64,000 nt of DNA from a virus (taxonomy: Duplodnaviria; Heunggongvirae; Uroviricota; Caudoviricetes), in the IMG/VR virus record IMGVR_UViG_3300012007_000007, positions 99,434 to 163,433 of that record; one strand, written 5' to 3'. The stretch's first letter is position 1, and each line of letters begins with the position of its first letter. Position numbers and translations under genes: made by a program. Under the pieces are notes generated by a model. That model saw only the letters and a list, made by a program, of their open reading frames with translations, made no database searches and was not told the origin of the DNA. This document shows, in pieces, positions 44,777 to 60,208 of this stretch.

Positions 44777-45274
44777 CTAAATTTGGGTATTCTTTCCCGC
44801 GCCGGCCACCTTTTCCAGCTTCCTGTCCATCAGCCAGAGGTATATCTTCCACCACAGCCAGGAGAACGTGCTGTTCACCCGGAACGGAACCGAATGGTCG
44901 TCCAGGTACACGTCGGCGCATATTTTCCTCCCGAACCTCCCGGAGCCTTCCTGGTATTCCCCGGGAGTCTCCCCTATGTTCCGGTTGACCGCGTCGAAGA
45001 ACATCTGGTGCCGGGTGCAGTACTGTACCGCCATGTTCAGGTATTCCCGGTCCTCGTAATCCCTCCCGCCGTAGTTCTCCCGGCATGTCCAGAGCACTAT
45101 GCGGTCGCCCATGAGCCTGCGCTTCCTGAGCCACCCGGCCACGACCTGGTTCCAGACTGCGTCATCCCCTATGTCGGGCCACGTGCCGGTTGCCAGCGTG
45201 CCGTCGAAATCAACGGCTATGGTGAGCGGCCTTCCGCCCTTTTGGATTCTTACCGCGTTTCCTCTTTTGGCCAT
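44777..45274 (-). CDS. HAD-superfamily phosphatase (165 aa)
   Basis: motif I IAVDFDGTL near the N-terminus. Confidence 0.6.
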   Translation of the reverse strand: MAKRGNAVRIQKGGRPLTIAVDFDGTLATGTWPDIGDDAVWNQVVAGWLRKRRLMGDRIVLWTCRENYGGRDYEDREYLNMAVQYCTRHQMFFDAVNRNIGETPGEYQEGSGRFGRKICADVYLDDHSVPFRVNSTFSWLWWKIYLWLMDRKLEKVAGAGKNTQI

Positions 45275-45803
45275 TCTTGCCCCCTGAGTGCATTACGCCT
45301 ACGACGGCCTCGCCGGATGCGAGCCTAATCTGCGATATCTCGTGTTCGGCCGTCTCCTTGAACGTGGCGAGGAGTTCGCCGAGCTTGTCCATTGTGGCCT
45401 TCCCGGTACATACCAGGCTGGCGATGTAGTCGTGGTCTACGCCGAACAGCGCGGAGCCGTCCACGACGTAGTAGAACTTCTTGTCCTGCTCGTCGTATGT
45501 CATGCCGAACTTGGCGCATGCCTCGTTTATCTTCCTGATGTTCGACTCGTCCTTCAGGAACCTGTACACCTGCTCGTCCATCCTGGCGGACTTCATCATC
45601 GCATTGAGCTGGTTACCGACCTGGTCGGCCGGGTATACGCCGTCCCGGTTGAGCCATGGCAGTGAAAACTCCATCGAGAACCCCACCGGAGAAGCGTACA
45701 CTAGCGACTCGCCGCCCACCTTATTCTTCTCGTACCGGAAGCCCATGCGGGTCGCCGCGGCTATTACTCCTTCGTAATCAATTAGCGGCTGGCTACTCAT
45801 CAA
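45210..45803 (-). CDS. hypothetical protein with basic C-terminal tail (197 aa)
   Basis: ORF track; C-terminal 20 codons overlap the HAD gene. Confidence 0.5.
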   Translation of the reverse strand: MMSSQPLIDYEGVIAAATRMGFRYEKNKVGGESLVYASPVGFSMEFSLPWLNRDGVYPADQVGNQLNAMMKSARMDEQVYRFLKDESNIRKINEACAKFGMTYDEQDKKFYYVVDGSALFGVDHDYIASLVCTGKATMDKLGELLATFKETAEHEISQIRLASGEAVVGVMHSGGKNGQKRKRGKNPKGRKAAHHSR

Positions 45804-46257
45804 GGAACCCCCTCCACCTGTCGCTGTCCACCATGAACCCGCTGATAATCACGGGGGCGTTCTTCCCTATGTACGGGAGAGTCCGCAGAGTGTTGTACTC
45901 GAACCACTCCAGGGCGGCCTCGTAGGCCTCGTCGTAGTCCTTGTACTCGTCGCTCTTGACGAACCTGTTGGCTATCGCCTTTACGCACAGTTCCCTCTCG
46001 TATACCGCCACGACGATGCCGTCCGCGTTCTCCATGGTCCCGACCATCGCATCCTCCATGTCGTGGAGCATCACTATGTTGGCACCCCGTTCATCGTCAG
46101 TGTCGCACGCCTCGTCGTAGCGCTCCTTCACAGTGTCGCTGTAGTCCGCCTTTATCCTCTCGCGGTCGGCGAGGATTTCGGCGTCGGTCATGCTACTCCC
46201 TGGAGATACGGTATTCTCCTCCTCAGACACCCCTCCTGACAGGTTCTCGTTTTCCAT
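45793..46257 (-). CDS. acidic hypothetical protein (154 aa)
   Basis: ORF track. Confidence 0.5.
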   Translation of the reverse strand: MENENLSGGVSEEENTVSPGSSMTDAEILADRERIKADYSDTVKERYDEACDTDDERGANIVMLHDMEDAMVGTMENADGIVVAVYERELCVKAIANRFVKSDEYKDYDEAYEAALEWFEYNTLRTLPYIGKNAPVIISGFMVDSDRWRGFLDE

Positions 46258-46302
46258 AGTTCCTTCCTAGTTAATAGATTTTCCCTTCCGTGGCTAGCTT
46301 CG

Positions 46303-47562
46303 TTAATCTGTCCTCACGGTATTGTCGAACAGTTCCTTTATCTTCGGTACGGCCAGGCACATGAGTTTTTCCCATTTCGGCCCGTCGTCCTTCCCGAATC
46401 CCTTCTTCGCCTGTTCCTTCCTGCGCTCCGCCTCGGCATTGGCCGGGCGCACCTTCGTGTAGTACAGGCTGCTCACAACCTCTTCCGGACACAGGTACAG
46501 GAACTTGTAGATGTTCAGCCCGTATGCCTTCGCCTTGTCCGACGGCCCGCTGTGGAACTCGTTCCACATGACATCCTCGTTCCTCGCCGTCAGGTCCATC
46601 AGTTCCTCGCCCAGGGCGGTCAGGCCGGGTATGTCCACCTTCGCCATGCGTTTCAGCTCGGCGACCATCTTCCCCTTGGTGGACCAGTCGGCATCGGAGC
46701 CGAACAACAACTTGTCGGCAGTAATACCGCTCAGGTTGTTCTTGAAGTTATAGTAGAAACGCACGAACCTCCCGGCGACCCCGACTCCCACCCGTCCGGC
46801 GACCAGCGCGTACAGGAAGTTCTCGGCATCGTCGTACAGCCTCATGTCGAACCGGGACTTGCCGGTCCCGCGGAAGTTCTCCCCGCGGGTGATGTGTTTC
46901 CCGAGAATATGGAACTGCCTGCGGCATGGCAGGACGTGGTGGTAGTACTGTCCCTTGGCCTCGTTAACGTTCGACTCGTTCTTGAAGGTATCGAGGTCAT
47001 CCGGGTGCTGCCTGATGTATTCGCGTATCACCGCGGGAACTCCTTCCTCGGCGGCATACGCAAGCCATTCGTCCACGGTGGGCTCCAGCTGCATCACCTG
47101 GAACCTGGCCCGGTGGGCCGGGTCCATCTCGATTACCTGGTAGAGGTTTCCGAACTCCGGGTTTATCGCAGCCATCACGTAGCTGCCGTCCGGGAGAACC
47201 AGGTCGCCCACGCGGTGGTCGGTCGCGAGTCGCATCAGCCCCTTCATCACGGTCTTGTTCCTGTTCACCTCGTCGAGAAGCAGGACGCACTTCGTATCCG
47301 GCCCGAGATACCAGGATGGCGGCTTGTACACCGTCCTCCCGCTGTCGAAGTCGGGAAGCCCGAACACGTCGACCATGTCCGTGTTCTCGGACACCTGTAT
47401 CACGCAGAACGGCAGCTTCACTATGTCGTCCGCGAAGTGCCTGGATATCGTAGTCTTTCCTATGCCGGTGTCGCCCTCGAGCAGCACCGCCGATTCCGAC
47501 CCGCACACTTCCATCATGTCATAGAACTGTGCGAAACTGATTCCCTTTCTTTCAGTAATCAT
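46303..47562 (-). CDS. MoxR/CobS-like AAA+ ATPase (419 aa)
   Basis: Walker A LLEGDTGIGKTT, Walker B CVLLLDEVNR, sensor AAINP. Confidence 0.7.
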   Translation of the reverse strand: MITERKGISFAQFYDMMEVCGSESAVLLEGDTGIGKTTISRHFADDIVKLPFCVIQVSENTDMVDVFGLPDFDSGRTVYKPPSWYLGPDTKCVLLLDEVNRNKTVMKGLMRLATDHRVGDLVLPDGSYVMAAINPEFGNLYQVIEMDPAHRARFQVMQLEPTVDEWLAYAAEEGVPAVIREYIRQHPDDLDTFKNESNVNEAKGQYYHHVLPCRRQFHILGKHITRGENFRGTGKSRFDMRLYDDAENFLYALVAGRVGVGVAGRFVRFYYNFKNNLSGITADKLLFGSDADWSTKGKMVAELKRMAKVDIPGLTALGEELMDLTARNEDVMWNEFHSGPSDKAKAYGLNIYKFLYLCPEEVVSSLYYTKVRPANAEAERRKEQAKKGFGKDDGPKWEKLMCLAVPKIKELFDNTVRTD

Positions 47563-47570
47563 ACCAAAAA

Positions 47571-47586
47571 CAAATGTAGCAAAATG
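47571..47586 (-). promoter_or_regulatory. class-III motif variant (TTTTGCTACATTTG)
   Basis: only ~10 nt upstream of ATG 47562. Confidence 0.35.
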
Positions 47587-47622
47587 AAGATGCCCCGGAA
47601 CCGGTCCGGGGCGTTTTCGCCG

Positions 47623-47907
47623 CTATTTCTTGTATATCCGTCGCATCACCAGCAGCCCCGTCGTCAGTATCGTCGCTACCGTGTAGTTGAAGTACAGCGG
47701 CCACTGCCATTCCCCGGTCACGCAGTTGGTGTACAGGACGAAAGCGCAGCTTCCGAGGTTACCTACGTAGGCCAGCGCGAAGAACCCGTACGATAGCCCG
47801 GTATCCTTCTTCTTCCACGCCTTGCGGACCTGAGGGGCCAGGTTGAATGCGAATGCCACCGCACCCGCACCTCCCAGAAGCCAGAACAGAATCCCTACCG
47901 CGTCCAT
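47623..47907 (-). CDS. PQ-loop / SemiSWEET-like small membrane protein (94 aa)
   Basis: 3 TM helices; PQVRKAWKKKDTGLS motif. Confidence 0.4.
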   Translation of the reverse strand: MDAVGILFWLLGGAGAVAFAFNLAPQVRKAWKKKDTGLSYGFFALAYVGNLGSCAFVLYTNCVTGEWQWPLYFNYTVATILTTGLLVMRRIYKK

Positions 47908-49154
47908 CAGCCCGCCTTGATTTCCCCCACGAGTTTATCGAACCACTCCCGCGTCATCTGCCGCCTGTCCTTGCGATGGCGGTACACGGCCAGCCGGAGC
48001 TTTCTGAGCGTATGTCCAAACTCCTTGCCCTGCTTCACGCCGGCATCGAGCAACGCCCTCGTCATGTCCTTCATTGTGGGCCACTCGGTCGCGTGCTCCC
48101 GCAGCTTTATCTCGTCCGTCCGAGAAATTACCAGGTAGCCCTGTCTCGAGAACACGTAGGCCCTGAACAGTTCCCATCGGTCGTCGGTAACCAGGTCGAC
48201 AAGGTCTACAAGGTCGAGCGTACCGGCGAGGTACTTCTTGAATCTTTCGGTAATATACTCGACGTTCCTCGCGTCCTCCCTGGTGCACTTCAGGGCCTGC
48301 ATCGAGTACTTGTCCGGGAGTATCAGCGGGAACAGGTATTCGGGCTTCCACTGCACGTCACTACCCAATGTCGCGCACGCCGTAGCCAATCTTGCAATGC
48401 ACTGTCTGGCAAAGTCCCAGTCGATATTCAGGCCAGTTCCCTTCCCGATGTCCCATGACGCCATCCAGCCGAGCATCGCGGCGACCTGCTGCACTCCGTA
48501 CTCGGCACACTTGGCAAGCTCGTCGTGAATCCTTTCCTTCGATATGTTGGCCAGCCTCGGCGCAAGCACCCTCGCGGCATTCAGCGTGGCAACATCTATC
48601 TTCATGCCGAAACGAGCGGCGAACCGGCACATCCTCACTATCCTTAGCGCGTCCTCGGTGAACCGCTCGGTAGCATCGCCGACGGTCCGCAGGTGGTTCT
48701 TCGTAATTGATTCAACGCCGCCGTGGTAGTCGACCACACGGTAATCGCCGTCCAGTCCCATTGCATTGGCGGTGAAGTCCCTTCTCGCCGAATCCTCCTC
48801 AAAGCTCCCGGCCCACTCTACGCTATCCGGGTGCCGTCCGTCGGTATAGTCCCCGTCCTTCCTGAACTGGGTCACCTCGAACATCGTGTCCTTCCACTCG
48901 ACCAGCACGGTACCGTGCGCCTCGCCGTTGTTGCTCTCGCACCTGAACGCCTTCTTCAGCTCCTCGATTGGCATGTTGGTCGCTATGTCCACGTCGTGTA
49001 TGCCGGGATGCTTCTCCAGCCCCAGCTCCCAGCGGACAAGGTCCCTCACGCAGCCCCCGGCAAGGAGTGCGTCATATCCGTGTTTACCAATCTCCCTGAC
49101 TAAACCGAGCCCCTTCTCGACGAGGGGGATGGTCCTTGCGTTCAATATAATCAT
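47907..49154 (-). CDS. tRNA nucleotidyltransferase (CCA-adding enzyme / poly(A) polymerase head + HD domain) (415 aa)
   Basis: GGCVRDLV ... HDVDIAT nucleotidyltransferase motif; C-terminal HD-like LRIVRMCRFAARFG. Confidence 0.7.
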   Translation of the reverse strand: MIILNARTIPLVEKGLGLVREIGKHGYDALLAGGCVRDLVRWELGLEKHPGIHDVDIATNMPIEELKKAFRCESNNGEAHGTVLVEWKDTMFEVTQFRKDGDYTDGRHPDSVEWAGSFEEDSARRDFTANAMGLDGDYRVVDYHGGVESITKNHLRTVGDATERFTEDALRIVRMCRFAARFGMKIDVATLNAARVLAPRLANISKERIHDELAKCAEYGVQQVAAMLGWMASWDIGKGTGLNIDWDFARQCIARLATACATLGSDVQWKPEYLFPLILPDKYSMQALKCTREDARNVEYITERFKKYLAGTLDLVDLVDLVTDDRWELFRAYVFSRQGYLVISRTDEIKLREHATEWPTMKDMTRALLDAGVKQGKEFGHTLRKLRLAVYRHRKDRRQMTREWFDKLVGEIKAG

Positions 49155-49168
49155 TTGGCCAGAATCCT

Positions 49169-49184
49169 TTCGAGTTGCGCAAAT
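49169..49184 (-). promoter_or_regulatory. class-III motif variant (TAAGCTAGATTTGCGC)
   Basis: ~30 nt upstream of ATG 49154. Confidence 0.35.
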
Positions 49185-49189
49185 CTAGC

Positions 49190-50974
49190 TTATTTCCCGA
49201 TAAAAGTGTCAAGGTCCTCCTTGAACACGCACCAGTCGGGGAACGCGTAATCCCCGTGCGACCGAAGTATCATTATCTGCCTCGGCCTCGGAGGCTCCGG
49301 CCAGTTGAATATGCAGTCCGTCAGGTATATCAGACCGTCATACTTGTAGCGCTCCGGACCCAGCTTCCGCAGGACGCAGTCGGGGTCGGTCCGGCCGCCA
49401 CCGTATATCGCCATGTCCCTTATCGACCTCGGGGTGTCGAATACCGGGCTGCACACGGCGTCCCAGTACACTATGTCTACCGAGAGCCCGTTCACGATGT
49501 TCTCCATCACCGTCAGACAGTTGAGTATCGCGTCGCCCTGGTACATCGAGCCGCTCACGTCTATGCAGAACAGTATCCTCTGCGTCTCCTCGTACAGGTT
49601 TCCCGGGGCAATCATCCCGTACCTCAGGTACTTCCTGTTGCGGCGGCTCCAGCTCGGGTTGAACTCCTCGTCCTGCACGCTCGTCATGAACCGGCGGAAC
49701 ATGGCCTCCCGGTCGACCTTCACACGGTTCGCGTTCCTCAGCATCAGTGGCAGGGGGCCGCGCATCCTGTCGAACATTCCCTTGTCCAGCGCATCCAGCA
49801 CCTTCGCCGTGGTGTTGTCGCTCGCCACCGAGTCGTTGTCCCACCTGGCCAGGTCGCCCGCCGCGTTGGACAGCGAGAAGTACTGCGACATTCTCTCCAT
49901 GTCGTCCTTTGGAGAATCTCCCCGTCCTTCGCCGGAAGACCCGTCGTCGACCGGCTCGCCGCCTTCACCCTCCTCGGTACCGCCGTCGGAATCGCCACCT
50001 TCCGTAGAGTCGCTGCCGCCGTCCGAATCACCCTCGCCGGAATCTCCCGGGGAACCGTCGGGAACCGAGCCACCGTCCTGGCCCTCGCCGGATGAACCGT
50101 CCGCGTCTTCACCGGGAGAACCTTCGCCGCCATCGTCGAATGGTTCGCTGCCGGACTCTTCACCGGGTTCTTCCTGGCTTTCACCGCCTTCATCGGGTGA
50201 ACCTTCGCCGTCGCCATCGCCGCCGGACTCCCCTTCGCCGGAATCACCCTCGTCGCCTCCCTTGCCCTTCTCCTCCCGGCTCTTGCCCTCTCCGCCGGGC
50301 TCGTCGCCGGTTTCCTCTGAGTCGTCCCCGTGCTCGCCGGATTCGCCATGGCTTCCGCCCGACTCTTCCTGCTTCTGCTCGGTCTTCTTCCCGGATTTCC
50401 CCGGGCTGTCCGAGGTTTCCTTCCGGGTTTCCCGGGAGGTTTCCCGGGAATTCTCCTCCCGCTCCTCGTCGTCGGACTCCTCGGGTTCCTGGGAGGCGTA
50501 CTCCTCCTTCAGAATCTCGAACAGCTTTTCCAGCGTAAGGTCGGTTTCCGGGTGGAACCCGTGCTTCTTCAGCACCGGCCAGTGGTTCCAGTAGCTCGGG
50601 AATATGCGGTTGACTATCTCCAGGTTGTTTCCTATCGAAGTATCGACTACCTTCCTGGCATACTCGGCGACGACTATGTCGCTGGCCAGCTTCAGCATGG
50701 ACAGCGGTTCCTGCTTGCGCTTGTCGCAGTGGTGCAGCGCAATCTTCAGGCACTGCATGTACACCACCGCCCCGAGCAGGGAAGGTTCCAGGCGGGTGAC
50801 GAAGTCCACGTTGTACTCGAGCACCGGCATTCCGCCGTCAACGCCGGTACGGACGGTAACGGAAGTGTCCTCGGTAGGTATGCAGTTCGCCGACATGTAC
50901 ACCGGGAGAAGCCCCGGTGCCGTCTTCGACATCAGCAGCACTGCCTGTCTCATCGCGGCGTTGGCCGCTTCCAT
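49190..50974 (-). CDS. CobT-like von Willebrand factor A domain protein with long acidic linker (594 aa)
   Basis: C-terminal vWA MIDAS motif FCIDVSGSMY; ~200-aa D/E/G/S-rich linker; start set at MEAANAAM, since the upstream 87 codons are Arg/Gly junk. Confidence 0.6.
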   Translation of the reverse strand: MEAANAAMRQAVLLMSKTAPGLLPVYMSANCIPTEDTSVTVRTGVDGGMPVLEYNVDFVTRLEPSLLGAVVYMQCLKIALHHCDKRKQEPLSMLKLASDIVVAEYARKVVDTSIGNNLEIVNRIFPSYWNHWPVLKKHGFHPETDLTLEKLFEILKEEYASQEPEESDDEEREENSRETSRETRKETSDSPGKSGKKTEQKQEESGGSHGESGEHGDDSEETGDEPGGEGKSREEKGKGGDEGDSGEGESGGDGDGEGSPDEGGESQEEPGEESGSEPFDDGGEGSPGEDADGSSGEGQDGGSVPDGSPGDSGEGDSDGGSDSTEGGDSDGGTEEGEGGEPVDDGSSGEGRGDSPKDDMERMSQYFSLSNAAGDLARWDNDSVASDNTTAKVLDALDKGMFDRMRGPLPLMLRNANRVKVDREAMFRRFMTSVQDEEFNPSWSRRNRKYLRYGMIAPGNLYEETQRILFCIDVSGSMYQGDAILNCLTVMENIVNGLSVDIVYWDAVCSPVFDTPRSIRDMAIYGGGRTDPDCVLRKLGPERYKYDGLIYLTDCIFNWPEPPRPRQIMILRSHGDYAFPDWCVFKEDLDTFIGK

Positions 50975-50988
50975 TCTGCGGGAATCAA

Positions 50989-51306
50989 TCAAAACACTTT
51001 CCTGTATGGCTGAATTGTGTACTGCACCCTGCGTGTTCCGATTCCCGGCCGTCCGCCGGAATAGTATACCTCGCTCTCGATTGCGGCCACCCTTCCCGGA
51101 TACAATTTCTTGTTTCCCCTGACGGCCCTCACGGCGCGCTCGAACATCGGCTCGTAGTCGTAATCCTTGTATCCCGGGTATGTCTTGACCGGCTGGTACC
51201 AGATTGTAACCCCGCGCCTGCGGTGGCATTTCCATCCGAAAGTAATCTGGCGCAGCCTATTGCTTATAGCATTATGGAAAAGTATTCTCTTTATCTTGTT
51301 CAGCAT
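50989..51306 (-). CDS. hypothetical protein (105 aa)
   Basis: AAGGAAAGACTAT RBS; internal ATG (residue 20) of ORF 50989..51363. Confidence 0.45.
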   Translation of the reverse strand: MLNKIKRILFHNAISNRLRQITFGWKCHRRRGVTIWYQPVKTYPGYKDYDYEPMFERAVRAVRGNKKLYPGRVAAIESEVYYSGGRPGIGTRRVQYTIQPYRKVF

Positions 51307-51351
51307 ATAGTCTTTCCTTGCAACAAAAAATGTGGCCTCGGTGGCCACATT

Positions 51352-51364
51352 CAAATATAGCAAA
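51352..51364 (-). promoter_or_regulatory. class-III motif
   Basis: TTTGCTATATTTGAA; here the hairpin TGTGGCCACCGAGGCCACA follows the motif. Confidence 0.4.
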
Positions 51365-52178: not shown

Positions 52179-53024
52179 TCAGGCATCCGGCACCTCCACC
52201 AAGTAAGTTCCCGCTTCCCTGTTCAGCATGAACGCGTTCCTTTCCTCGGGATAGCCGAGCGGGTTGCACACTATCCTGACGCGGTTCCCGGTAGGAGCGG
52301 TGTACACCGTGTCGAACTGGTTGTGCGTGTGGCCACACTGCCATACCGTACCGTCGTCCAGCATGTCGAGGAACCTCTGCGCGTCGAAATAGAACATCGC
52401 CGTCACCGGGTCATCCCGGTACACCTCGGCAACCCCCATCTGCAACGGGCAGAAGTGCGTCATGACTATCCGGGGCCTCGCCTTGCATACAACCTCGAGA
52501 TTCTCCAGCTCCCTCGCCAGGATGTCCGGGAACACCTGGTTCCTGTAGTTCCACAGCCTGCCGTCGAACCACCGGTTGCTCCAGAAGTCGAGCGCGTTGA
52601 ACGGCTCTCCGTTGTCTACGCGGTAGCCCAGGTCGCATACGCCCATCGTTCCTCCGAACAGCCCTGACTCATCGACCTGTCCGTCAAGGATATGGACGTT
52701 GGGGCAGCTTTCCGAGATGCTCTCCCGGACATACTCCATCCTCTCCTCGCTGGTGTCGAACAGCCTTCCCGGGAAATCCCGCTTCACCACCAGGTCATGA
52801 TTGCCGAACACCACGTAGACCTCCCGGTACTTCCGGGAGATGAACCGCAGGAACGAAAGCTGTACCCCCTCGTAGTTGGCGACATCGCCGGCTATGCATA
52901 CCGCGTCGGCAGGGGTGAAGTAGTTGCCGTACAGTGCTTCGAACATAGGGTGGAGAACGGCATCGCTGTCGCTCAGTGCCGAATAGAAATCTACATGTAT
53001 ATCCGAAATGAGGAATACTTTCAT
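52179..53024 (-). CDS. calcineurin-like metallophosphoesterase (281 aa)
   Basis: ISDIHVD, GDVANY, GNHD, GHTH motifs; GGAGG RBS 9 nt upstream. Confidence 0.7.
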   Translation of the reverse strand: MKVFLISDIHVDFYSALSDSDAVLHPMFEALYGNYFTPADAVCIAGDVANYEGVQLSFLRFISRKYREVYVVFGNHDLVVKRDFPGRLFDTSEERMEYVRESISESCPNVHILDGQVDESGLFGGTMGVCDLGYRVDNGEPFNALDFWSNRWFDGRLWNYRNQVFPDILARELENLEVVCKARPRIVMTHFCPLQMGVAEVYRDDPVTAMFYFDAQRFLDMLDDGTVWQCGHTHNQFDTVYTAPTGNRVRIVCNPLGYPEERNAFMLNREAGTYLVEVPDA

Positions 53025-53060
53025 GGATGCGCCTCCGGGAACATTGCTTGCCCCAGGATG

Positions 53061-53076
53061 CAAATATAGCATTTTT
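53061..53076 (-). promoter_or_regulatory. class-III motif
   Basis: AAAAATGCTATATTTG ~40 nt upstream of ATG 53024. Confidence 0.45.
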
Positions 53077-54223: not shown

Positions 54224-54481
54224 TTACACGTCGATTATTGTGCCGTATGCACCTACGGCCTGCATACGCTGCTCGGGACAGCGAGTATTTACTGTCTTGT
54301 CGCAGGAATAGCCGCAATGCGGGCACCTGCATGTATAGTTCACATAGTCAAACGAGCCGTGACCTTGACGGGTGACCTTGGCCTCCCCGAGGTCGGCATC
54401 GAAAATGCAGTCGCATTCCATGCACACGAAACGAATTTTCTTGGTAATACCTTCGCGAACGATTTCCATGTGTTGTTTCAT
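54224..54481 (-). CDS. zinc-ribbon protein (85 aa)
   Basis: CMECDC ... CRCPHCGYSC; internal ATG of ORF 54224..54523. Confidence 0.45.
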   Translation of the reverse strand: MKQHMEIVREGITKKIRFVCMECDCIFDADLGEAKVTRQGHGSFDYVNYTCRCPHCGYSCDKTVNTRCPEQRMQAVGAYGTIIDV

Positions 54482-54507
54482 CCTTTTGGACACACCGTTA
54501 AACAATA

Positions 54508-54533
54508 GGCTATGTCCACCCAAAGAGTTGCTT
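54508..54533 (+). repeat. 28-bp repeat copy C (GGCTATGTCCACCCAAAGAGTTGCT)
   Basis: 24/25 identical to 35941 copy; direct orientation. Confidence 0.55.
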
Positions 54534-54561
54534 GCAGGATTATTGCAGCCCCGTTACACCT

Positions 54562-54852
54562 TTATTTCTTTTTCCAATGGTCTTGACCTACTTCATGATA
54601 TCCAAGAGATTCCAAAACCTGTCTGTGTTCGGGGCTACTAACGTGCATAATAATACCATTGACATGTCCCCTGCGTGAAGCATTAGTAATAGTCTCCGAT
54701 GCTTCCCTAACACACTGCAATATACTTTTCTTCTTCACTGCATCTACAATGGCATTAACGATGCCATCATACTTGAAATTGGACTTGTCTACACGCTTTC
54801 CAGATTTCAATTCCTCTAAGATTTCATTATCAACGGCATCTGCGCTAGTCAT
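54562..54852 (-). CDS. hypothetical protein (96 aa)
   Basis: ORF track. Confidence 0.5.
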   Translation of the reverse strand: MTSADAVDNEILEELKSGKRVDKSNFKYDGIVNAIVDAVKKKSILQCVREASETITNASRRGHVNGIIMHVSSPEHRQVLESLGYHEVGQDHWKKK

Positions 54853-54946
54853 TTGTTACTCCGATGTATTGAAGTTGATAGATTTCATTTTTCAGCAGCA
54901 CGTTGGGTTAACATACCCAAACAATATCTATTCCGGATGCGTGTAG

Positions 54947-55029
54947 CGGAAGGCGAGGGACTCGAACCCCCAAGCGTTTTACCGCGGCGGATTTCAAGTC
55001 CGCTGACTTACCAGTTAGCCTAGCCTTCC
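54947..55029 (-). tRNA. tRNA-Ser (anticodon UGA), long variable arm
   Basis: hand-folded cloverleaf; acceptor GGAAGGC/GCCTTCC; anticodon loop CTTGAAA; T-loop GGTTCGAGTCC. Confidence 0.65.
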
Positions 55030-55036
55030 TGTTTCC

Positions 55037-55225
55037 CTAGTAGTGGGCGTGCGAAGAGAGAAGTTCAGCCTTCTCCCTCTCCATGCGCTCCCTCTGCCGG
55101 GCAAGCTTCTTGATGTCTATTCCGCAGGACTTGGCCATGCTCCTGGCCTTCTTCTGCTGCTTGGCCCAGCGGGCCTGCTTCTGCTCCTCGGTTTCCTCCG
55201 GGAGCTCTTCCCTGTGCTTCTTCAT
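55037..55225 (-). CDS. small Lys/Glu-rich protein (62 aa)
   Basis: ORF track. Confidence 0.4.
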   Translation of the reverse strand: MKKHREELPEETEEQKQARWAKQQKKARSMAKSCGIDIKKLARQRERMEREKAELLSSHAHY

Positions 55226-55233
55226 ATGTCCCC

Positions 55234-55701
55234 CTAGTCGTTCACCCCGACGACCACAATCTCGTCTTCGGTAAAATACTCGTTAAGTTTGTCCCTGTTG
55301 GCCTGCATAGTGTTCCACATGCGCTCGACCACGTCAATAGGAACCTTGCGCTCCCTGCCTTCCATTCTCCGCATGGCGACCTCGGGCGGAATGTCGAACC
55401 AGTAGGCCCTGGACATTGAGCCGGCCGGGCAAAGGCCCAGGTAGGTCCTCCAGTCCCTCACGTGGATATTGGTGGCGTCGCACACCACGTCGCCGCGCAG
55501 CATGCCCTCCGATACCCTAGAACGGAATATGGCGAATACCTTGGAATCCAGCTCCGGGTAGAGGTATTCCTCCGTACCGGTCAGTTCCTTCCGGATTCCA
55601 TCGGACGACACTACGGTAGCCCCGGTAGATTCCGCGAGCTTCCTCCCGTACGTAGACTTGCCGCACCCGGGAATGCCTATGAGAAGATGCAGAGTATTCA
55701 T
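55234..55701 (-). CDS. polynucleotide 5'-kinase (T4 Pnk kinase-domain-like P-loop kinase) (155 aa)
   Basis: GIPGCGKST Walker A; RKVPIDVVERMWNTM closely resembles T4 Pnk KAVPIDVLRSMYKSM. Confidence 0.65.
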   Translation of the reverse strand: MNTLHLLIGIPGCGKSTYGRKLAESTGATVVSSDGIRKELTGTEEYLYPELDSKVFAIFRSRVSEGMLRGDVVCDATNIHVRDWRTYLGLCPAGSMSRAYWFDIPPEVAMRRMEGRERKVPIDVVERMWNTMQANRDKLNEYFTEDEIVVVGVND

Positions 55702-55719
55702 CTGATTGTTCCTTTTTAG

Positions 55720-55792
55720 TAGTCCTACCCGGATTCGAACCGGAGTTACCGGAATGAGAATCCGGCGTCCTGGGCCTCTAGACGATAGGACC
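55720..55792 (-). tRNA. tRNA-Glu (anticodon CUC)
   Basis: hand-folded; strong similarity to bacterial tRNA-Glu backbone; loop TTCTCAT. Confidence 0.6.
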
Positions 55793-55807
55793 GTGTGTTA
55801 AATTTAG

Positions 55808-55881
55808 CTCCGGTGGACAGACTCGAACTGCCGAATCTCCTGATTACAAATCAGGCGCTCTACCAACTGAGCTACACCGGA
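55808..55881 (-). tRNA. tRNA-Thr (anticodon UGU)
   Basis: hand-folded; loop TTTGTAA; T-loop TTCGAGT. Confidence 0.6.
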
Positions 55882-55887
55882 ATGGAA

Positions 55888-55961
55888 TCGGGGTAGCCGG
55901 ATTCGAACCGACGACATCCTGCTCCCAAAGCAGACGCTCTACCAGGCTGAGCTACACCCCG
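55888..55961 (-). tRNA. tRNA-Pro (anticodon UGG)
   Basis: hand-folded; loop TTTGGGA. Confidence 0.6.
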
Positions 55962-55967
55962 GGAACC

Positions 55968-56228
55968 CTAGTCTTCTTCGACTGGTTCCGTCAGCTTGGT
56001 AGCGATTACCTTCGCGTAGTCGGCCACCGTGCGGATACGTTCGAGCTCGGAATCGAGAATCTCAATCTCGAACTCGTCTTCCATCGCCATCACGATTTCC
56101 ACGATGTCGAGAGAGTCCGCGCCGAGGTCGGCAGCGATTTCGGAATCGTCGTCGATGTCGGAAACGTCAAGTTCCAGCTTGGCGGAAATTACGTTCTTCA
56201 CGCGTCCGAGAAGTTCATTGCTTGTCAT
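55968..56228 (-). CDS. acyl carrier protein (86 aa)
   Basis: GADSLDIVEIVMAMEDEF phosphopantetheine-attachment motif; AGGAGA RBS. Confidence 0.65.
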   Translation of the reverse strand: MTSNELLGRVKNVISAKLELDVSDIDDDSEIAADLGADSLDIVEIVMAMEDEFEIEILDSELERIRTVADYAKVIATKLTEPVEED

Positions 56229-56244
56229 ATACTCTCCTTGTAAA

Positions 56245-56541
56245 TCACTTGACTTCTTCGACTTTCTGCGGTCCGGCCAGGCGGTGCATGTCCGCATACA
56301 GTCTTTCCCGGTATAGTCCGAGGTCCTTCAATGTCTTTTCCAGTTCGTCGAACCTGCATTCGACGACACGGTCTCCGGATTCGATGCGGGCCTTCTCCTT
56401 ATCCATGTCGTACCGTATCCATGTTACGGCCAGGTCCTTCGGGTTGACGTACTTGGTCGTCGTAACGTCGTACGAGTGCATGTTTTGGAGGTAACCTTCG
56501 ATGAACCGGAATTTCCAAAGAGCAAAGTTTGTCAAGTCCAT
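56245..56541 (-). CDS. hypothetical protein (98 aa)
   Basis: ORF track. Confidence 0.5.
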   Translation of the reverse strand: MDLTNFALWKFRFIEGYLQNMHSYDVTTTKYVNPKDLAVTWIRYDMDKEKARIESGDRVVECRFDELEKTLKDLGLYRERLYADMHRLAGPQKVEEVK

Positions 56542-56562
56542 TGTTCATTATCCCCAAATTGC

Positions 56563-56651
56563 CAGTTTATGTAGAAGAGGGAGCAGGATTCGAACCTGCG
56601 AGGGCCCGTGAGGGCCCCACCGGCTTAGCAAGCCGGCGCCTTTAGCCTCTC
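56563..56651 (-). tRNA. tRNA-Ser (anticodon GCU), long variable arm
   Basis: hand-folded; loop TTGCTAA; 89 nt. Confidence 0.6.
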
Positions 56652-56670
56652 GGCCACCCCTCCGATGAAA

Positions 56671-57450
56671 TTAGTTCAGCGACAGGTCGGGAACTACCCT
56701 TTCCACGGAGCGGCTGTCGTTGAACTCGCTGCCACGATAGCGGTGAGTGTCGTACTTCGGGTCCTGCCCTATGATGCCGTAAGTCATGGAATCGGCCATG
56801 CCGGATGTCTTGCACACGCTGAACAGCGCGTCGCTCATGAACGGGTACCGCTTCAGCTCGTTGAGGAGACCGTCGAGTATGAAGTCGGCGAACCTGGTGT
56901 AAGCGCCGCTGTAGCACAGCAGACCCTTGTTCAGCCCGACCAGGAACAGCTTCATCTCGGAATGGTGGGCGAGGTACTCGTAAACTCCCTCCGTAATCTG
57001 CGGATAGGTCGGGGAATACATGTCGTCGAGCACCACTACACCGTCCGGCTGCAGTACCTTCGACGCGATGTCGAGGTCGCACTTCACCCCTTCCAGGGAA
57101 TGGGCCCCGTCGATGTGGATGAACTGCATGCACTTTCCGTATTCGCGGGTGAACGGGGTGTAGCATGAAAGGTTGAGGTATCCCTTCACGTGCTCCCCGT
57201 CCAGCGTGGTATGCGAAAGCACGTTCTCCCTGGTGGTCTGGTAGTGTCCGGCGTCGCATTCGACGTAGTGGAACGTGTCGGAAGTGCTGCTCGCTATGAT
57301 GACGGCCGTCTTCCCGTCCCACGTCCCTATCTCCATCGTGTTCGCCGGCTCGATGAAGCGTAGAAAACAGTCCATCAGGACCATGGCCTCGTAGTTGTTG
57401 AAGCCCTCTATGTCCGCGACAGTGTACATGTTGAATATATCGTTCTTCAT
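56671..57450 (-). CDS. class I SAM-dependent methyltransferase (TylF/MycF-like fold) (259 aa)
   Basis: EIGTWDGKTAVIIA (motif I-like), IHIDGAHSLEG, DGVVVLDDM. Confidence 0.5.
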   Translation of the reverse strand: MKNDIFNMYTVADIEGFNNYEAMVLMDCFLRFIEPANTMEIGTWDGKTAVIIASSTSDTFHYVECDAGHYQTTRENVLSHTTLDGEHVKGYLNLSCYTPFTREYGKCMQFIHIDGAHSLEGVKCDLDIASKVLQPDGVVVLDDMYSPTYPQITEGVYEYLAHHSEMKLFLVGLNKGLLCYSGAYTRFADFILDGLLNELKRYPFMSDALFSVCKTSGMADSMTYGIIGQDPKYDTHRYRGSEFNDSRSVERVVPDLSLN

Positions 57451-57484
57451 CGGGAATCTCCGGGAGATTGGTTGTTTTTGCTAG

Positions 57485-57557
57485 TATCCCCACCAAGACT
57501 CGAACTTGAATCGGCGGTTTAGGAAACCGTGGCTCTATCCTGTTGAGCTATGGGGAC
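57485..57557 (-). tRNA. tRNA-Arg (anticodon CCU)
   Basis: hand-folded; loop TTCCTAA. Confidence 0.55.
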
Positions 57558-57582
57558 TCATACTCGTACTTACGGAAGTGGA

Positions 57583-57666
57583 GGGACTCGAACCCCCAAG
57601 CCGGTAAAGGCTCGCGGTTTTCGAAACCGCTCCGCCACCACTTGCGGGACACTTCCTGTATAGGGT
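57583..57666 (-). tRNA. tRNA-Ser (anticodon CGA), long variable arm
   Basis: hand-folded; perfect acceptor GGAAGTG/CACTTCC; loop TTCGAAA. Confidence 0.6.
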
Positions 57667-57673
57667 GGAAGAC

Positions 57674-57747
57674 AGGGCTTGAACCTGCAACAGCCGGCTC
57701 CACAAGCCGGGGCTCTACCAGTTGAGCTACTTCCACCGTAAATGGCC
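57674..57747 (-). tRNA. tRNA-His (anticodon GUG) with genomically encoded G-1
   Basis: hand-folded; loop TTGTGGA; extra 5' G pairing with C73. Confidence 0.6.
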
Positions 57748-57864
57748 ATGCGGCCCGGGAGCGCCGGGATATCCCGCGGCGTTTTCCCGGTTGCCCCGGG
57801 AGCATACCGCCGGCATGCTGAGCATCCCGGGTATTGGCCGGGACTCACTTACATCACCGCATAG

Positions 57865-57939
57865 TGCCCCTGGATGGGCTCGAACCACCGACCACTCCCA
57901 CCAATGGCGGGAGATGCTCTACCGCTGAGCTACAAGGAC
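57865..57939 (-). tRNA. tRNA-like gene with non-canonical anticodon arm (8-bp stem / 3-nt loop, or 9-nt loop)
   Basis: acceptor, D-arm and T-arm (GGTGG-TTCGAGC-CCATC) fold; anticodon region CTCCCGCCATTGGTGGGAG does not give a 7-nt loop. Confidence 0.4.
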
Positions 57940-58184
57940 ATGGACCGGGGTACTAGCTAGCTCTCCCCCGGCGATTGAAGCAGCCGGCTGCCATGCAGGC
58001 TGACGGGCCCACATGGCCCGCCTTCACGATTTCCCTCCAATCAATTGGAAACCGGGAACGGTAGGCGGGCGCAGTCCGGTATCCCGGATGGCTGGCCCCT
58101 GGGCTGTTCCATGCCCGCCATGACTTTGTGCCTCATGGTGGCGACCATCGCATTTCCCGCGGTCGACGGGGCATGCGGTAGTAG

Positions 58185-58260
58185 TGGACGGTCTGGGGCT
58201 CGAACCCAGGGCCTAGTGGTTATGAGTCACCTGCTCGCATACCAACCGAGCTCACCGTCC
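58185..58260 (-). tRNA. tRNA-Met (anticodon CAU; elongator, or Ile2 lysidine type)
   Basis: hand-folded; perfect acceptor GGACGGT/ACCGTCC; loop CTCATAA. Confidence 0.55.
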
Positions 58261-58266
58261 GTAAAC

Positions 58267-59025
58267 TTATGCTTCAATTAACACATCATCTGATTCAATA
58301 TATCGATAGAACGTGCAACCTAGCAGCTCTTTGATGATACGTGTTCGTTCGATATCCTTGTCCTGACATACGCCATTAGTGTAATGGTGCCTGTGTTCAT
58401 CGTATTCAACGACTATATTACGTTCTTTATCATAAGCATCCAATGAATAACGGCCAACTCGAATCTCACCACCATTCATTGCATGCTGTAAATTCCAGCC
58501 ACGCTCAGCATTGAGCCTATCGAAATATTCACACGCTTTGATGCTGTATCGCGGACCAGCATTGGTTGCGTTTATATATTGCCGCGTCGATTCGCTAATT
58601 TTCTTCTTGGTTTCATCAGAATGGGTTCTTCCAGTGAATGTTCCCTTCAACTCTCCGCTAGCATATCGGTTTTCTAATGTAGTCACATACTGTTTGACCC
58701 TGGCATCAGTGAATTGTGTCAATCCCTTGTTCCATGCACTTCCAATCAGCTTTCGCTTTCCATCAACTACAACGAATCTAATCGCCTTATCGGGGTGAAC
58801 ACTCTTCTTATGTGCATCGAGAAGCCGTCTGGTTTCCATTACGCAATCACAGAATGGACACTTCCAGTCATTAGACCTGCGCCGACGAGTTGCTGGAGGA
58901 TGTCCTGTCAGTTTACCGTTCTTGTTTGATTGCTTGCCAATATTGCGATATTGGCAAGCTCTCGAGCAGAACCTCCCAGACCCGTACGAACCATCATGCT
59001 CAGCACCACATTCTTCGCATATCAT
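58267..59025 (-). CDS. putative freestanding homing endonuclease (N-terminal zinc fingers + NUMOD3-like motif) (252 aa)
   Basis: CEECG...CSRAC and CPFCDC...H..H fingers; FTGRTHSDETKKKISESTRQY NUMOD3-like; embedded in the tRNA cluster like T4 segB. Confidence 0.45.
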   Translation of the reverse strand: MICEECGAEHDGSYGSGRFCSRACQYRNIGKQSNKNGKLTGHPPATRRRRSNDWKCPFCDCVMETRRLLDAHKKSVHPDKAIRFVVVDGKRKLIGSAWNKGLTQFTDARVKQYVTTLENRYASGELKGTFTGRTHSDETKKKISESTRQYINATNAGPRYSIKACEYFDRLNAERGWNLQHAMNGGEIRVGRYSLDAYDKERNIVVEYDEHRHHYTNGVCQDKDIERTRIIKELLGCTFYRYIESDDVLIEA

Positions 59026-59042
59026 ATCTTTTATCCTTTTAG

Positions 59043-59119
59043 TGCCACGGGGTGGATTCGAACCACCATCTCACCTGGTCGCGAACCAAGGATGCGCTCT
59101 GCCGTTAAACTACCGCGAC
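59043..59119 (-). tRNA. tRNA-like gene with insertion between D- and anticodon stems
   Basis: T-arm GGTGG-TTCGAAT-CCACC and acceptor fold (2 G-U pairs); the standard anticodon stem does not pair. Confidence 0.35.
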
Positions 59120-59120
59120 A

Positions 59121-59774
59121 TGGTGGGAACAGCGGTATCCTAGCTTCTAGAAAGCGTCACCGCCCGGTTCCCTCTCGGTGTCCTTGCAGGGACTGTACTC
59201 ATTCCGCCGATGCGGAAACCATCCGGCTATCTGCCAACCGGCTAGGCCACTGTAACCAGTGTGGCCAACGGGCCCTTAATGCTCCACGTTACCAGGACGT
59301 GGCCGCACTCTGTCTTGTTTTACGTCGTTTCGACGGGCGCACCCGACGGCCGGACTTGCGAGAGCATACCTCGCTCGTCCATATTTGGCTTCCCCGCAAT
59401 TTACACCTAGGCTAATCACGGTTACCCAAAATCATAATCTCGCTGGCGCATTACCGGGCTTCCCCGAACGGTACCCCGGCCATTATTCCGCCACTTATGC
59501 TACGGCACAGCCCCATAGGATATACCTGCGGGCATCTTCCATCATCTCCGTCGAGACTTTTCAAACACACTGGGCCTATTAGCGGGCCCTTACCGCTTTA
59601 CGCTCGCGTGGCCGGTACGCGGCTGCACGCATGCAACCTTTCCCTGAACGGGATTGGCATTATGGCACTTGGCCAAGCTCATCAAATGCATGACCCCAGA
59701 TTCCTGTCGGGCCAAGAAACTTACCGCACGAATATCCAGGAATCTCAGTCGGGCGGCAGCAATCCAATGTCCTA
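59121..59774 (-). ncRNA. candidate structured ncRNA (GC-rich, ORF-free, ~650 nt) with RNase P RNA P3/P4-like motifs
   Basis: minus-strand hairpin GCGAG-guaugcu-CUCGC followed by AAGUCCGGCC; later ACAGAGUGCGGCC, CCUGGUAACG; near the 3' end GGGAACCGGGCGG complementary to GUCCGG; ends ...CCCACCA. Confidence 0.3.
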
Positions 59775-59847
59775 CTCCGGCTGCCGGACTCGAACCAGCG
59801 ACCCCGTCATTACGAATGACGCGCTCTACCAGCTGAGCTAAGCCGGA
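59775..59847 (-). tRNA. tRNA-Thr (anticodon CGU)
   Basis: hand-folded; perfect acceptor TCCGGCT/AGCCGGA; loop TTCGTAA. Confidence 0.6.
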
Positions 59848-60135
59848 AAAATGGTGGAACGCCCCGGTCTCGATTGTTCACAGGAAGTACCAGAGCCTTG
59901 ATAATGCCGAGCGGCCTTGCGTCCACCAAATGGTTTCCCGGCGGGGCGTAATATCTTCAATGTAAAAATAGGAACGCCGTTTGCCGGGAATAAAGGGGGC
60001 ACCTCCCGGGGAGTAATAATTTAACCCGTAAGAAGGAACTCCGTATGGGAGGTGCTAATGTCTTGGCGCGGGCCCAACCGGAGGAGAAAGGGCCCGCGCC
60101 GTCGCCGCGGCATGGAGGGACCGCGGACTTGTTCG

Positions 60136-60208
60136 TAGCGGGAGGCGGATTCGAACCGCCGACCTCGAGGTTATGGGCCTCGCGAGCTACCAACTGCTCC
60201 ATCCCGCG
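60136..60208 (-). tRNA. initiator tRNA-fMet (anticodon CAU)
   Basis: C1 x U72 mismatch, A11:U24, GGAGCAGTTGGTAGCTCG closely matches bacterial tRNA-fMet; loop CCCATAA. Confidence 0.6.

Follow-up and report, generated by a model that had tools for sequence, protein, structure and literature searches.

Huge phages are known to carry large sets of transfer RNA (tRNA) genes, transfer-messenger RNA (tmRNA), CCA-adding enzymes and compact type V CRISPR-Cas systems, a combination that has been published as their signature (Al-Shayeb et al. 2020, PMC7162821). Phage tRNAs have also been proposed to evade anticodon nucleases via loop mutations (PMC10264068, PMC11555353). Large phage RNAs of the GOLLD and ROOL types are found near tRNA islands; GOLLD has a conserved 3' part, a variable 5' part and sometimes tRNAs in its linker (PMC12286853). 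The locus described here lies in a 64,000-nt stretch of the Caudoviricetes record IMGVR_UViG_3300012007_000007 (positions 99,434 to 163,433), called the window below. Its interval 44777–60208 combines tRNA genes with a CCA-adding enzyme, a T4-Pnk-type polynucleotide kinase and a HAD phosphatase, and was taken in an earlier, sequence-only reading for a self-contained tRNA maintenance toolkit. The region is best explained as the promoter-distal end of the tRNA island of a huge phage together with co-directional auxiliary genes, in which a tRNA maturation arm stands beside a plausible, incomplete RNA repair arm and a separate carrier-protein pair; a probability of about 0.6 is given to this explanation as a whole. 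A kinase, a CCA enzyme and a HAD protein beside a tRNA island are a largely known kind of combination. The real surprise, and the most interesting content of the interval, is a conserved structured RNA of ~640 nt. The sequence-only reading had passed over this RNA, as well as a carrier-protein gene, a PptH-like metallophosphoesterase, a methyltransferase, a homing-endonuclease-like ORF and the DUF2201 and AAA_5 genes on either side of the CCA enzyme.

Megablast against 50,697 phage records returned no match for the whole region. Peptide patterns of the CCA enzyme were scanned in IMG/VR and gave no match either, after which relatives were recovered by kinase-based searches of IMG/VR and metagenomes. 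Their closest proteins are 66–78% identical to those of the window, and their contigs range from 75 kb up to 270, 284, 326, 372, 431 and 455 kb, two of them classed as viral by IMG/VR. The block is syntenic in about eight related genomes, on contigs of up to 455 kb, with protein identities of 46–78% across the relatives. The full gene order is kept in L001, L016, L017, L081, L084 and L088 and part of it in L002, L015, L018, L082 and L083; L088 is a near-identical strain contig that begins at the kinase, with the island outside its extent. The island of the relatives ends with Thr(CGU), tmRNA, the large RNA, Met, Arg(ACG), His, Arg(CCU), Ser(GCU), Pro, Thr(UGU) and Glu(CUC), and within this terminal stretch sit genes for an acyl carrier protein (ACP) and a 98-aa open reading frame (ORF). 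Next in order come the kinase, a 62-aa ORF, tRNA-Ser(UGA), a metallophosphoesterase, a Band_7 protein with small ORFs, a DUF2201 protein, the CCA enzyme, a PQ-loop protein, an AAA_5 ATPase, two ORFs, the HAD phosphatase and a DUF932 protein.

The window holds only the proximal end of a larger tRNA island, as the islands of the relatives comprise 32–35 tRNAs and a bona fide tmRNA (Rfam 101 bits); some relatives also carry a PTH2 peptidyl-tRNA hydrolase. The window has gained a homing-endonuclease-like ORF, a methyltransferase, an SprT-like gene and a CRISPR-Cas unit as insertions specific to it, and it has lost the tmRNA, whose precise absence is shown by alignment with L001. A tmRNA had been suspected in the gap at 59120–59773, L001 having one at the homologous place, and neither ARAGORN nor Rfam found any. 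A 9-bp hairpin (AGATTCCTG...CAGGAATCT) lies in the ~90-nt spacer that follows tRNA-Thr(CGU) (59688–59775, minus strand), which shows 83% conservation with its Thr-to-tmRNA counterpart in L001; the tmRNA that lies between this spacer and the large RNA in the relatives is precisely absent here.

ARAGORN located 13 genes of tRNA type, which span 54946 to 60208 and without exception lie on the minus strand, and all 13 scored above the Rfam gathering score for tRNA (39–67 bits, E 1e-4 to 1e-12). Eleven are canonical and two are aberrant tRNA-like elements. Every isoacceptor listed in the sequence-only reading was found (Ser-UGA, Ser-GCU, Ser-CGA, Thr-UGU, Thr-CGU, Arg-CCU, Glu-CUC, Pro-UGG, His-GUG, Met-CAU and initiator-CAU). 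Its count of 11 tRNAs plus an fMet initiator was right for the 11 isoacceptors and wrong for the addition, as the initiator is itself one of the 11. This initiator, with its CAU anticodon, is unpaired at 1:72 (C1xU72 in the window and L001, U1xU72 in L016), and its D-stem GAGC/GCTC yields an A11:U24 pair. Three consecutive G:C pairs at 29–31:39–41 are present in L016; the window and L001 have A29:U41 and then two G:C pairs. The initiator also carries C33 where U33 is universal, and both C33 and the 1:72 mismatch are conserved in L001 and L016. The other tRNA with a CAU anticodon is of elongator Met or Ile2 type, and its A31xC39 mismatch is conserved. The departures in both tRNAs, C33 and the incomplete G:C run of the initiator and A31xC39 of the elongator, could be nuclease-evasion features. 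In tRNA-His(GUG), G-1 is encoded.

One aberrant element, called tRNA-Asn(ATT) by ARAGORN, has three extra nt in its anticodon arm, which give an 8-bp stem and a 3-nt loop. It sits in the slot that is held by tRNA-Arg(ACG) in the relatives. A mutated orthologue of that tRNA-Arg was considered and rejected, since alignment shows the two to be non-orthologous; outside the window, the element resembles only the tRNA-like domain of the large RNA in L084.

No tRNA gene encodes its CCA end, as had been claimed from the sequence alone: the count was 0 of 13 in the window, 0 of 30 in L001 and 0 of 14 in L002. The discriminator is followed by C-T-A (an N73-CTA trailer) in 9 of the 13 genes of the window and in 20 of 30 and 9 of 14 genes of L001 and L002, respectively. 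The predicted CCA-adding enzyme was recognized by Pfam (PolyA_pol, 1e-25), NCBIfam (CCA nucleotidyltransferase, 2e-59) and PDB searches, its best solved relative being the B. stearothermophilus CCA-adding enzyme (1MIV, E 9e-42). Motif A (GGCVRD) and the carboxylates in HDVDIAT align to their equivalents in 1MIV (GGxVRD and DxD), as do motifs B (RRDFTANA) and D (TEDALRIVR), which correspond to RRD and to EDxxR, the protein template for CTP and ATP. The best matches are full CCA enzymes (1e-36 to 9e-42), followed by poly(A) polymerase (6e-21) and A-adding enzymes (2e-9); the score is under the NCBIfam equivalog cutoff (201.6 vs 290 bits). As every tRNA gene lacks CCA and a class II CCA enzyme is kept in the co-directional block in all relatives examined, the proposal of 3'-end completion stands. 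The epithet "self-contained" does not, given that RNase P, RNase Z, a ligase and aminoacyl-tRNA synthetases are all absent. The island would be transcribed as long polycistronic precursors, from which the tRNAs would be released, and the N73-CUA trailers trimmed off, by host RNase P and RNase Z or by exonucleases. The CCA-adding enzyme that the phage itself encodes would then complete the tRNA 3' ends, and the outcome would be a supply of functional tRNA independent of the state of the host pool.

The ~640-nt RNA was detected by nhmmer in 9 genomes, always within the island. It is 86–95% identical to its counterparts in L001, L016, L017 and L018; neighbouring proteins are ~50–75% identical. 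The predicted fold has a free energy of -273.6 kcal/mol (z = -2.8), compared with -228.7 (z = -1.6) for the opposite strand. For the conserved 3' ~350 nt, RNAalifold gave 95 pairs, 17 of which are compensatory with changes on both sides. Column shuffles gave 5.7 ± 1.6 such pairs and reached 17 in 0 of 500 cases, and slid partners gave 1–7. A hidden protein gene at 59037–59680 was ruled out by the 8–13 stop codons in each frame of the RNA strand and by the lack of a third-position substitution excess, unlike the kinase used as a control. Variation is greater in the 5' part, and an insertion of ~300 nt occurs in one member (L081).

The last ~77 nt of the RNA (59043–59119) form a tRNA-like domain that ARAGORN called tRNA-Ala(CGC), at 59042–59119. 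The acceptor, D and T arms are canonical, the discriminator is A and a CUA trailer follows. This domain fails tRNA-Ala identity, with C3:G70 in place of G3:U70, four extra nt between the D and anticodon stems and an extended anticodon arm, and the orthologous elements were called Ala-UGC, Ser-GGA and Trp-CCA, so that the "anticodon" differs by genome. The element is a tRNA-like domain and not a decoding tRNA.

None of 4227 Rfam families, GOLLD and ROOL included, matched the large RNA at E<=10 with relaxed filters, in either the window or the L081 copy, and the tmRNA positive control was found. RNase P RNA, group I intron, two-piece tmRNA, Y-RNA-like RNA, GOLLD and ROOL were each considered and received no support from Rfam at this threshold. 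Motifs of RNase P picked out by eye were in the wrong order and were dropped. Exact-pattern scans of IMG/VR returned only the contig of L001, and by such scans the RNA is so far seen in one phage clade. The odds appear about even that it is a new class of "ornate" phage RNA which, unlike GOLLD and ROOL, ends in a built-in tRNA-like handle with the N73-CUA trailer of the tRNAs. By virtue of this handle, the tRNA-processing machinery (RNase P, RNase Z and the phage CCA enzyme) would define, and possibly CCA-tag, the 3' end of the RNA. A phage tmRNA accompanies it in most relatives, and this pairing suggests that it acts at the ribosome or in tRNA/tmRNA biology.

The assignment of the Pnk-type kinase was sustained by matches to AAA_33 (1e-21) and to phrog_505 ("polynucleotide kinase"). 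Among PDB entries T4 Pnk came first, with a match that covers the full domain; PSTK and the bacterial Pnkp/Pnkp1 kinases were next. In the relatives the kinase gene always lies between tRNA-Glu(CUC) and tRNA-Ser(UGA). Its P-loop GIPGCGKST (residues 9–17) aligns to T4 GCPGSGKST (K15/S16), and SSD34GIR37 aligns with T4 NRD35DYR38, in which D35 is the catalytic Asp and R38 the Arg three residues later. Across 10 homologues GIPGCGK, D34, R37 and D75 do not vary, and T77, N78 and R112 are almost without variation; D75, T77 and N78 fall on the DTN strand of T4 Pnk. In the lid, R112 aligns with T4 R122, and the position of T4 R126 is occupied by Gly, with Arg116 one residue off. Dephospho-CoA kinase (CoaE), considered with the ACP and PptH-like neighbours in mind, was rejected, as the DxxR spacing is that of Pnk and no CoaE appeared among the PDB matches. 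The protein consists of the kinase domain only (155 aa), without the C-terminal HAD 3'-phosphatase of bifunctional T4 Pnkp, and 42 of 42 database homologues are likewise stand-alone proteins of 150–213 aa. Cleaved RNA or tRNA is the most likely substrate of the enzyme, which would phosphorylate its 5'-OH ends (end-healing).

Distant members of the kinase family have RNA ligases as neighbours, and this links the family to RNA repair. In L004/L005, a 156-kb viral contig of an unrelated phage, a kinase of 34% identity is fused to an HD phosphohydrolase domain, and 1.2 kb separate it from an RNA ligase that combines PF09414 with a PHA02142 OB domain. An RlaP "RNA repair pathway" nucleotidyltransferase belongs to the same cluster, as does a CCA-adding enzyme (43% identity over the head domain). 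In L086 a homologue of 39% identity has a T4 Rnl1-type ligase 2 kb away. The L004/L005 cluster is compact (419–10930) and comprises RlaP, the CCA-adding enzyme, an NT5C-type HAD, an MT-A70 protein, the RNA ligase and the kinase-HD fusion. In L083 an IS605-type resolvase and TnpB are inserted between the kinase and the metallophosphoesterase.

The separate HAD phosphatase of the sequence-only reading is real and belongs to the BT0820 family. Its motif residues D22, D24 and T26 (DxDxT), T63, R116/K117 and D125/D126, aligned to 2OBB, are invariant in 30 homologues, so that kinase and phosphatase both keep their catalytic motifs on alignment. With 57.7 bits against NCBIfam NF046079 the protein does not reach the equivalog cutoff of 165 and is a relative of that family, not an equivalog. 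The AlphaFold model has a predicted local distance difference test score (pLDDT) of 86, and BT0820 (2OBB) is its sole strong fold match (Foldseek E 6e-7). The next tier consists of HisB-N, 1XPJ, the T4 Pnkp 3'-phosphatase, the phage arabinose-diphosphate phosphatase AfhF and mammalian PNKP. The T4 Pnkp phosphatase (5UJ0) ranks 6 (E 0.016, probability 0.99, template modelling (TM) score 0.39–0.45, 25% identity). By sequence, only BT0820 matched, with no T4 Pnkp phosphatase at E<=1. On the model, the protein is a capless HAD of the broad group that also includes the Pnkp phosphatase; a specific relationship to the latter cannot be asserted. The HAD and kinase genes are 10 kb apart in the window; in L015 the HAD gene has been relocated to the island's head, no more than 3 kb from the kinase, and this hints weakly at a linkage between the two.

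The lack of an RNA ligase, already remarked on in the sequence-only reading, was borne out by Pfam, which found no ligase or RtcB domain among all called ORFs of the 64-kb window. When the window and all loci were searched by tblastn with a phage Rnl1 as query, only noise was returned. Host RtcB had been suggested as an alternative sealing partner. RtcB joins 3'-P or 2',3'-cyclic-P ends to 5'-OH ends. A 5'-kinase destroys this 5'-OH substrate and would block the route, so host RtcB cannot be the partner of the kinase, and any sealing needs a classical 3'-OH/5'-P ligase. Because no such ligase is encoded in the window, the repair arm is plausible but incomplete. In this arm the kinase would heal 5'-OH ends of cleaved RNA or tRNA, the HAD protein is a candidate 3'-phosphatase, and no candidate enzyme for sealing is seen. 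Repair of anticodon-nuclease damage, as first claimed, is weakly supported, with the distant kinase homologues beside RNA ligases in its favour and the missing ligase, both in the window and within ±10 kb of the kinase in 8 relatives, against it. The HAD protein, of BT0820 type and 10 kb from the kinase, is like the T4 Pnkp phosphatase at superfamily level only (rank 6, TM ~0.4). An end-healing role of the kinase in the clade of the window nevertheless appears plausible.

A T4-type pathway in split form is rather unlikely; in it tRNAs cut by host anticodon nucleases would be resealed by the stand-alone kinase, the HAD protein as a 3'-phosphatase and a ligase from another part of the >270-kb genome, with the CCA enzyme mending damaged 3' ends. 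It would account for the match of the catalytic residues of the kinase to T4 Pnk, for a capless HAD with the T4 Pnkp phosphatase as a top structural neighbour, for the kinase homologues that adjoin Rnl1-type and PF09414 ligases and CCA enzymes in other phages, and for the HAD gene being still linked to the island and kinase despite the rearrangement in L015. However, no ligase lies in any ~20-kb neighbourhood of the clade, and the HAD family is broad and occurs also in bacterial genomes; the HAD protein itself is annotated as BT0820-like only, at the score given above. The main rival to repair is replacement, in which the island gives nuclease-resistant or abundant substitute tRNAs once those of the host are depleted or cleaved, the CCA enzyme only matures them and the kinase and HAD serve elsewhere; this can be entertained tentatively, at less than even odds. 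For instance, by phosphorylating 5'-OH RNA fragments the kinase could hasten a decay that depends on 5'-P, and nucleotide or sugar-phosphate metabolism could be the task of the HAD. Replacement agrees with the near-complete sets of the relatives (32–35 tRNAs, tmRNA and PTH2), with the absence of a ligase nearby and with the conserved anticodon-loop oddities (initiator C33, Met A31xC39), which recall the published nuclease-escape idea, although these are putative resistance features. It leaves unexplained both the fixation of a Pnk-type kinase in the island of every relative and the clustering of its homologues with RNA ligases elsewhere.

Codon-usage compensation, the retention of tRNAs for codons that the host decodes poorly, was also suggested by the sequence-only reading and appears improbable. 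For Arg the phage chooses AGG in 27% of cases, for Glu GAG in 52%, for Thr ACG in 25% and for Ser UCG in 16%, and all four codons are read by encoded C34 tRNAs. The encoded set also serves codons that are rare in the phage (UCA 7%, CCA 8%), however, and the tRNAs for nearly all amino acids in the relatives fit general host independence better than selective compensation. A complete lack of a functional module is unlikely, too; the kinase, the CCA enzyme and the HAD would then be auxiliary genes without connection to one another that happen to share a conserved, co-directional, non-structural block. They are indeed separated by about 10 kb and by more than 10 unrelated genes (SprT-like, PptH-like, DUF2201, PQ-loop, AAA_5 and other ORFs), synteny is documented within one clade only, and terminator-like hairpins occur inside the block, at 47592–47612 and 51328–51352. 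Yet the kinase and a CCA enzyme co-occur again in the unrelated phage L004/L005, with no tRNAs nearby, and the position of the kinase in the island is invariant. The preferred explanation, an island end with a maturation arm, an incomplete repair arm and a carrier-protein pair, has several points to answer. Synteny among fairly close relatives is no proof of functional coupling. RNA ligase and RtcB are absent from the window, and no ligase occurs within ±10 kb of the kinase in 8 clade genomes. By sequence the HAD matches only BT0820, and as a fold neighbour the T4 Pnkp phosphatase is weak, on a par with HisB-N and the phage sugar-diphosphate phosphatase. Neither the HAD family nor the metallophosphoesterase family is ever fused to a kinase. 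The PSTK/KTI12-like scores of the kinase would allow a different tRNA-directed activity, and the promoter and terminator calls are consensus matches only.

These calls concern a promoter-like site and a strong terminator-like hairpin that are predicted to bracket the co-directional block (Table 1). The promoter-like site falls in a 68-nt block conserved with L001; counts of promoter matches in the region were not above chance.

PptH removes phosphopantetheine from holo-carrier proteins (PMC8557913). The model of the calcineurin-type metallophosphoesterase (pLDDT 94) has M. tuberculosis PptH (6UNC) as its top fold match (TM 0.66–0.70, E 4.5e-10), and the metal-site residues D24, H26, D63, N91, H92, H206, H248 and H250 are invariant in the family. 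A role as a 3'-end-healing partner of Pnkp type, like the lambda-phosphatase-like domain of C. thermocellum, was rejected, as lambda phosphatase 1G5B ranked 47 (TM 0.27) and the fold is that of PptH. The gene for the carrier protein is 3 kb away, and both genes are conserved in or next to the island. No phosphopantetheinyl transferase and no acyl or aminoacyl ligase was seen in the window. Because a PptH-like fold and a conserved GADSLD carrier protein lie so close together, the two are best read, on the strength of the model, as a separate carrier-protein function outside tRNA maintenance and RNA repair.

Table 1 Features of the window, with positions counted from its first nucleotide.
Feature	Position	Strand	Remark
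GmrSD_N+HNH	9813-11237
EcoRI-like adenine methylase	12150-13115
SpoVG	19347-19805
FtsK/SpoIIIE	24374-25720
RadC	25734-26396
NlpC/P60	31054-31494
SPFH	31514-32533
DUF932	43708-44670
Intrinsic-terminator-like hairpin, strong	44727..44757	-	14-bp stem and T-run; directly after HAD stop codon
BT0820-family capless HAD phosphatase	44777..45274	-	165 aa
AAA_5 MoxR-like ATPase	46303-47562	-	conserved neighbour of CCA enzyme
PQ-loop membrane protein	47623-47907	-	conserved neighbour of CCA enzyme
Class II CCA-adding tRNA nucleotidyltransferase	47907..49154	-	Bacillus type, without HD domain
DUF2201_N protein	49190..51235	-	putative metallopeptidase/VWA-like; conserved neighbour of CCA enzyme
Calcineurin-type metallophosphoesterase	52179..53072	-	PptH-like fold
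tRNA-Ser(UGA)	54946..55029	-	last gene of island; ARAGORN, Rfam
62-aa Lys/Arg/Glu-rich ORF	55037..55225	-	conserved, after kinase
T4-Pnk-type P-loop polynucleotide 5'-kinase	55234..55701	-	stand-alone, 155 aa
tRNA-Pro(UGG), tRNA-Thr(UGU), tRNA-Glu(CUC)	55719..55961	-	ARAGORN, Rfam
Acyl/peptidyl carrier protein (PP-binding)	55968..56297	-	GADSLD attachment motif; conserved in relatives
tRNA-Ser(GCU)	56574..56663	-	ARAGORN, Rfam
Methyltransf_24 class I methyltransferase	56671..57450	-	window-specific, not in relatives
tRNA-His(GUG), tRNA-Ser(CGA), tRNA-Arg(CCU)	57484..57736	-	ARAGORN, Rfam
"tRNA-Asn(ATT)", aberrant tRNA-like element	57864..57939	-	ARAGORN, Rfam 43 bits
tRNA(CAU), elongator Met or Ile2 type	58184..58260	-	77 nt; ARAGORN, Rfam
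252-aa zinc-finger/NUMOD3 ORF	58267..59025	-	NUMOD3 match weak; Vsr/DUF559-like C-terminus; low GC content at third codon positions
Conserved structured non-coding RNA, ~640 nt	59037..59680	-	between tRNA-Thr(CGU) and homing-endonuclease-like ORF
tRNA-Thr(CGU)	59774..59848	-	ARAGORN, Rfam 63 bits
Initiator-type tRNA-Met(CAU)	60135..60208	-	ARAGORN, Rfam; C1xU72 mismatch, A11:U24, C33
Promoter-like site TTGTCA-17-TATATT with TG extension	60442..60470	-	10/12 consensus match; ~235 nt upstream of initiator tRNA
767-aa protein, Cas12f1-like TNB domain and TnpB-like C-terminus	61576-63879	-	abuts CRISPR array

In every relative the CCA enzyme is flanked by the DUF2201_N protein on one side and by the PQ-loop and AAA_5 proteins on the other (46303–51235 in the window), and in L001 a HEARO (IscB-type omega) RNA of 122 bits lies at 17782–18011 between the PQ-loop and AAA_5 genes. 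A free-standing homing endonuclease is the probable product of the 252-aa ORF, whose insertion point lies precisely at the junction of the tRNA-like end of the large RNA with tRNA-Met, where the relatives have no gene; DUF559 endonuclease genes occur at other island positions in the relatives.

A CRISPR array at ~60600–61571, with 12 near-identical and 2–3 degenerate repeats of 36 nt (GGTGTAGTCACCCCTCAAAATGGGGGTGGGTCCACC on the plus strand) at a period of 66 nt, lies directly beyond the right edge of the interval 44777–60208. The ORFs called at 60773–61009 and 61038–61511 are artefacts over this array. The 767-aa protein beside it is, from its domains, a candidate compact type V effector; it has no sequence relative among solved structures and was left unclassified. 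In L082 an 831-aa Cas12f-TNB counterpart lies upstream of the tRNA island. Directly upstream of the Cas12-like gene lies a hairpin (63885–63902) with 89% complementarity to the tRNA-Thr(CGU) anticodon arm. Its plus strand resembles the anticodon arm of a Thr(TGT) tRNA, and it may be what is left of a distal part of the tRNA island that was displaced.

The upstream 44 kb (window 1–44000) contain no recognisable virion genes. CCCGGG-rich tandem repeats with periods of 11, 21, 33 and 63 nt occur at 22546–23352 and at many intergenic sites in the first 27 kb. A recurring GC-rich intergenic motif in the same 1–27 kb appears in spurious ORFs as "GMGCPGxPG" or "GPGWDAR" and may be a repeated regulatory or terminator element.

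The occurrence of a tRNA island with a CCA enzyme in a huge phage is not new, and confirms the existence of phages that combine CCA-less tRNAs with a finishing enzyme. The T4-Pnk-type kinase, kept in the island throughout the clade without a nearby ligase, offers a clean test case for whether end-healing kinases are always coupled to ligases or have another role. A carrier protein and a PptH-like hydrolase beside a tRNA island are an unexplained pairing. The functions of GOLLD and ROOL are a long-standing question; a third independent large phage RNA in the same niche, with a tRNA-like handle next to tmRNA, would, if true, sharpen hypotheses on function.

With the translation-support sets of huge phages (PMC7162821), the island and its relatives share large tRNA arrays, tmRNA (in the relatives), a CCA enzyme, compact type V CRISPR-Cas and contigs of 270–455 kb. 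The island differs in that a Pnk-type kinase, an ACP and a large structured RNA of no known class are fixed in it as well, and in that the window has lost the tmRNA. The T4 Pnkp/Rnl1 pathway is resembled by a kinase that aligns over the whole T4 Pnk kinase domain (P-loop and the equivalents of Asp35 and Arg38) and by a capless HAD in the block, whereas here the kinase (155 aa) and HAD (165 aa) are separate and 10 kb apart, the HAD is of BT0820 type and neither Rnl1 nor Rnl2 occurs in the window or close by in the relatives. The RNA-repair cassettes with an HD-Pnk-like protein, RlaP and a ligase, as in L004/L005, contain a homologous kinase (34%) and CCA enzyme (43%, head domain), but the clade of the window has no HD domain, RlaP or PF09414 ligase near its kinase. 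Compared with PptH (Rv2795c, 6UNC; PMC8557913), the metallophosphoesterase has ~20% sequence identity, a phage context beside a tRNA island, no phosphopantetheinyl transferase seen and an activity that is predicted only; it shares the fold (TM 0.66–0.70), the invariant metal motifs and a nearby carrier protein with a DSL motif. The large RNA matches the Rfam covariance model of neither GOLLD nor ROOL (PMC12286853; Weinberg 2017, PMC5737381) and is so far seen in one clade only, yet with both it shares a length of ~600 nt or more, many conserved helices and a location in phage tRNA islands, and with GOLLD in particular a strongly conserved 3' part, a variable 5' part, with the ~300-nt insertion in L081, and a covalently attached element of tRNA type.

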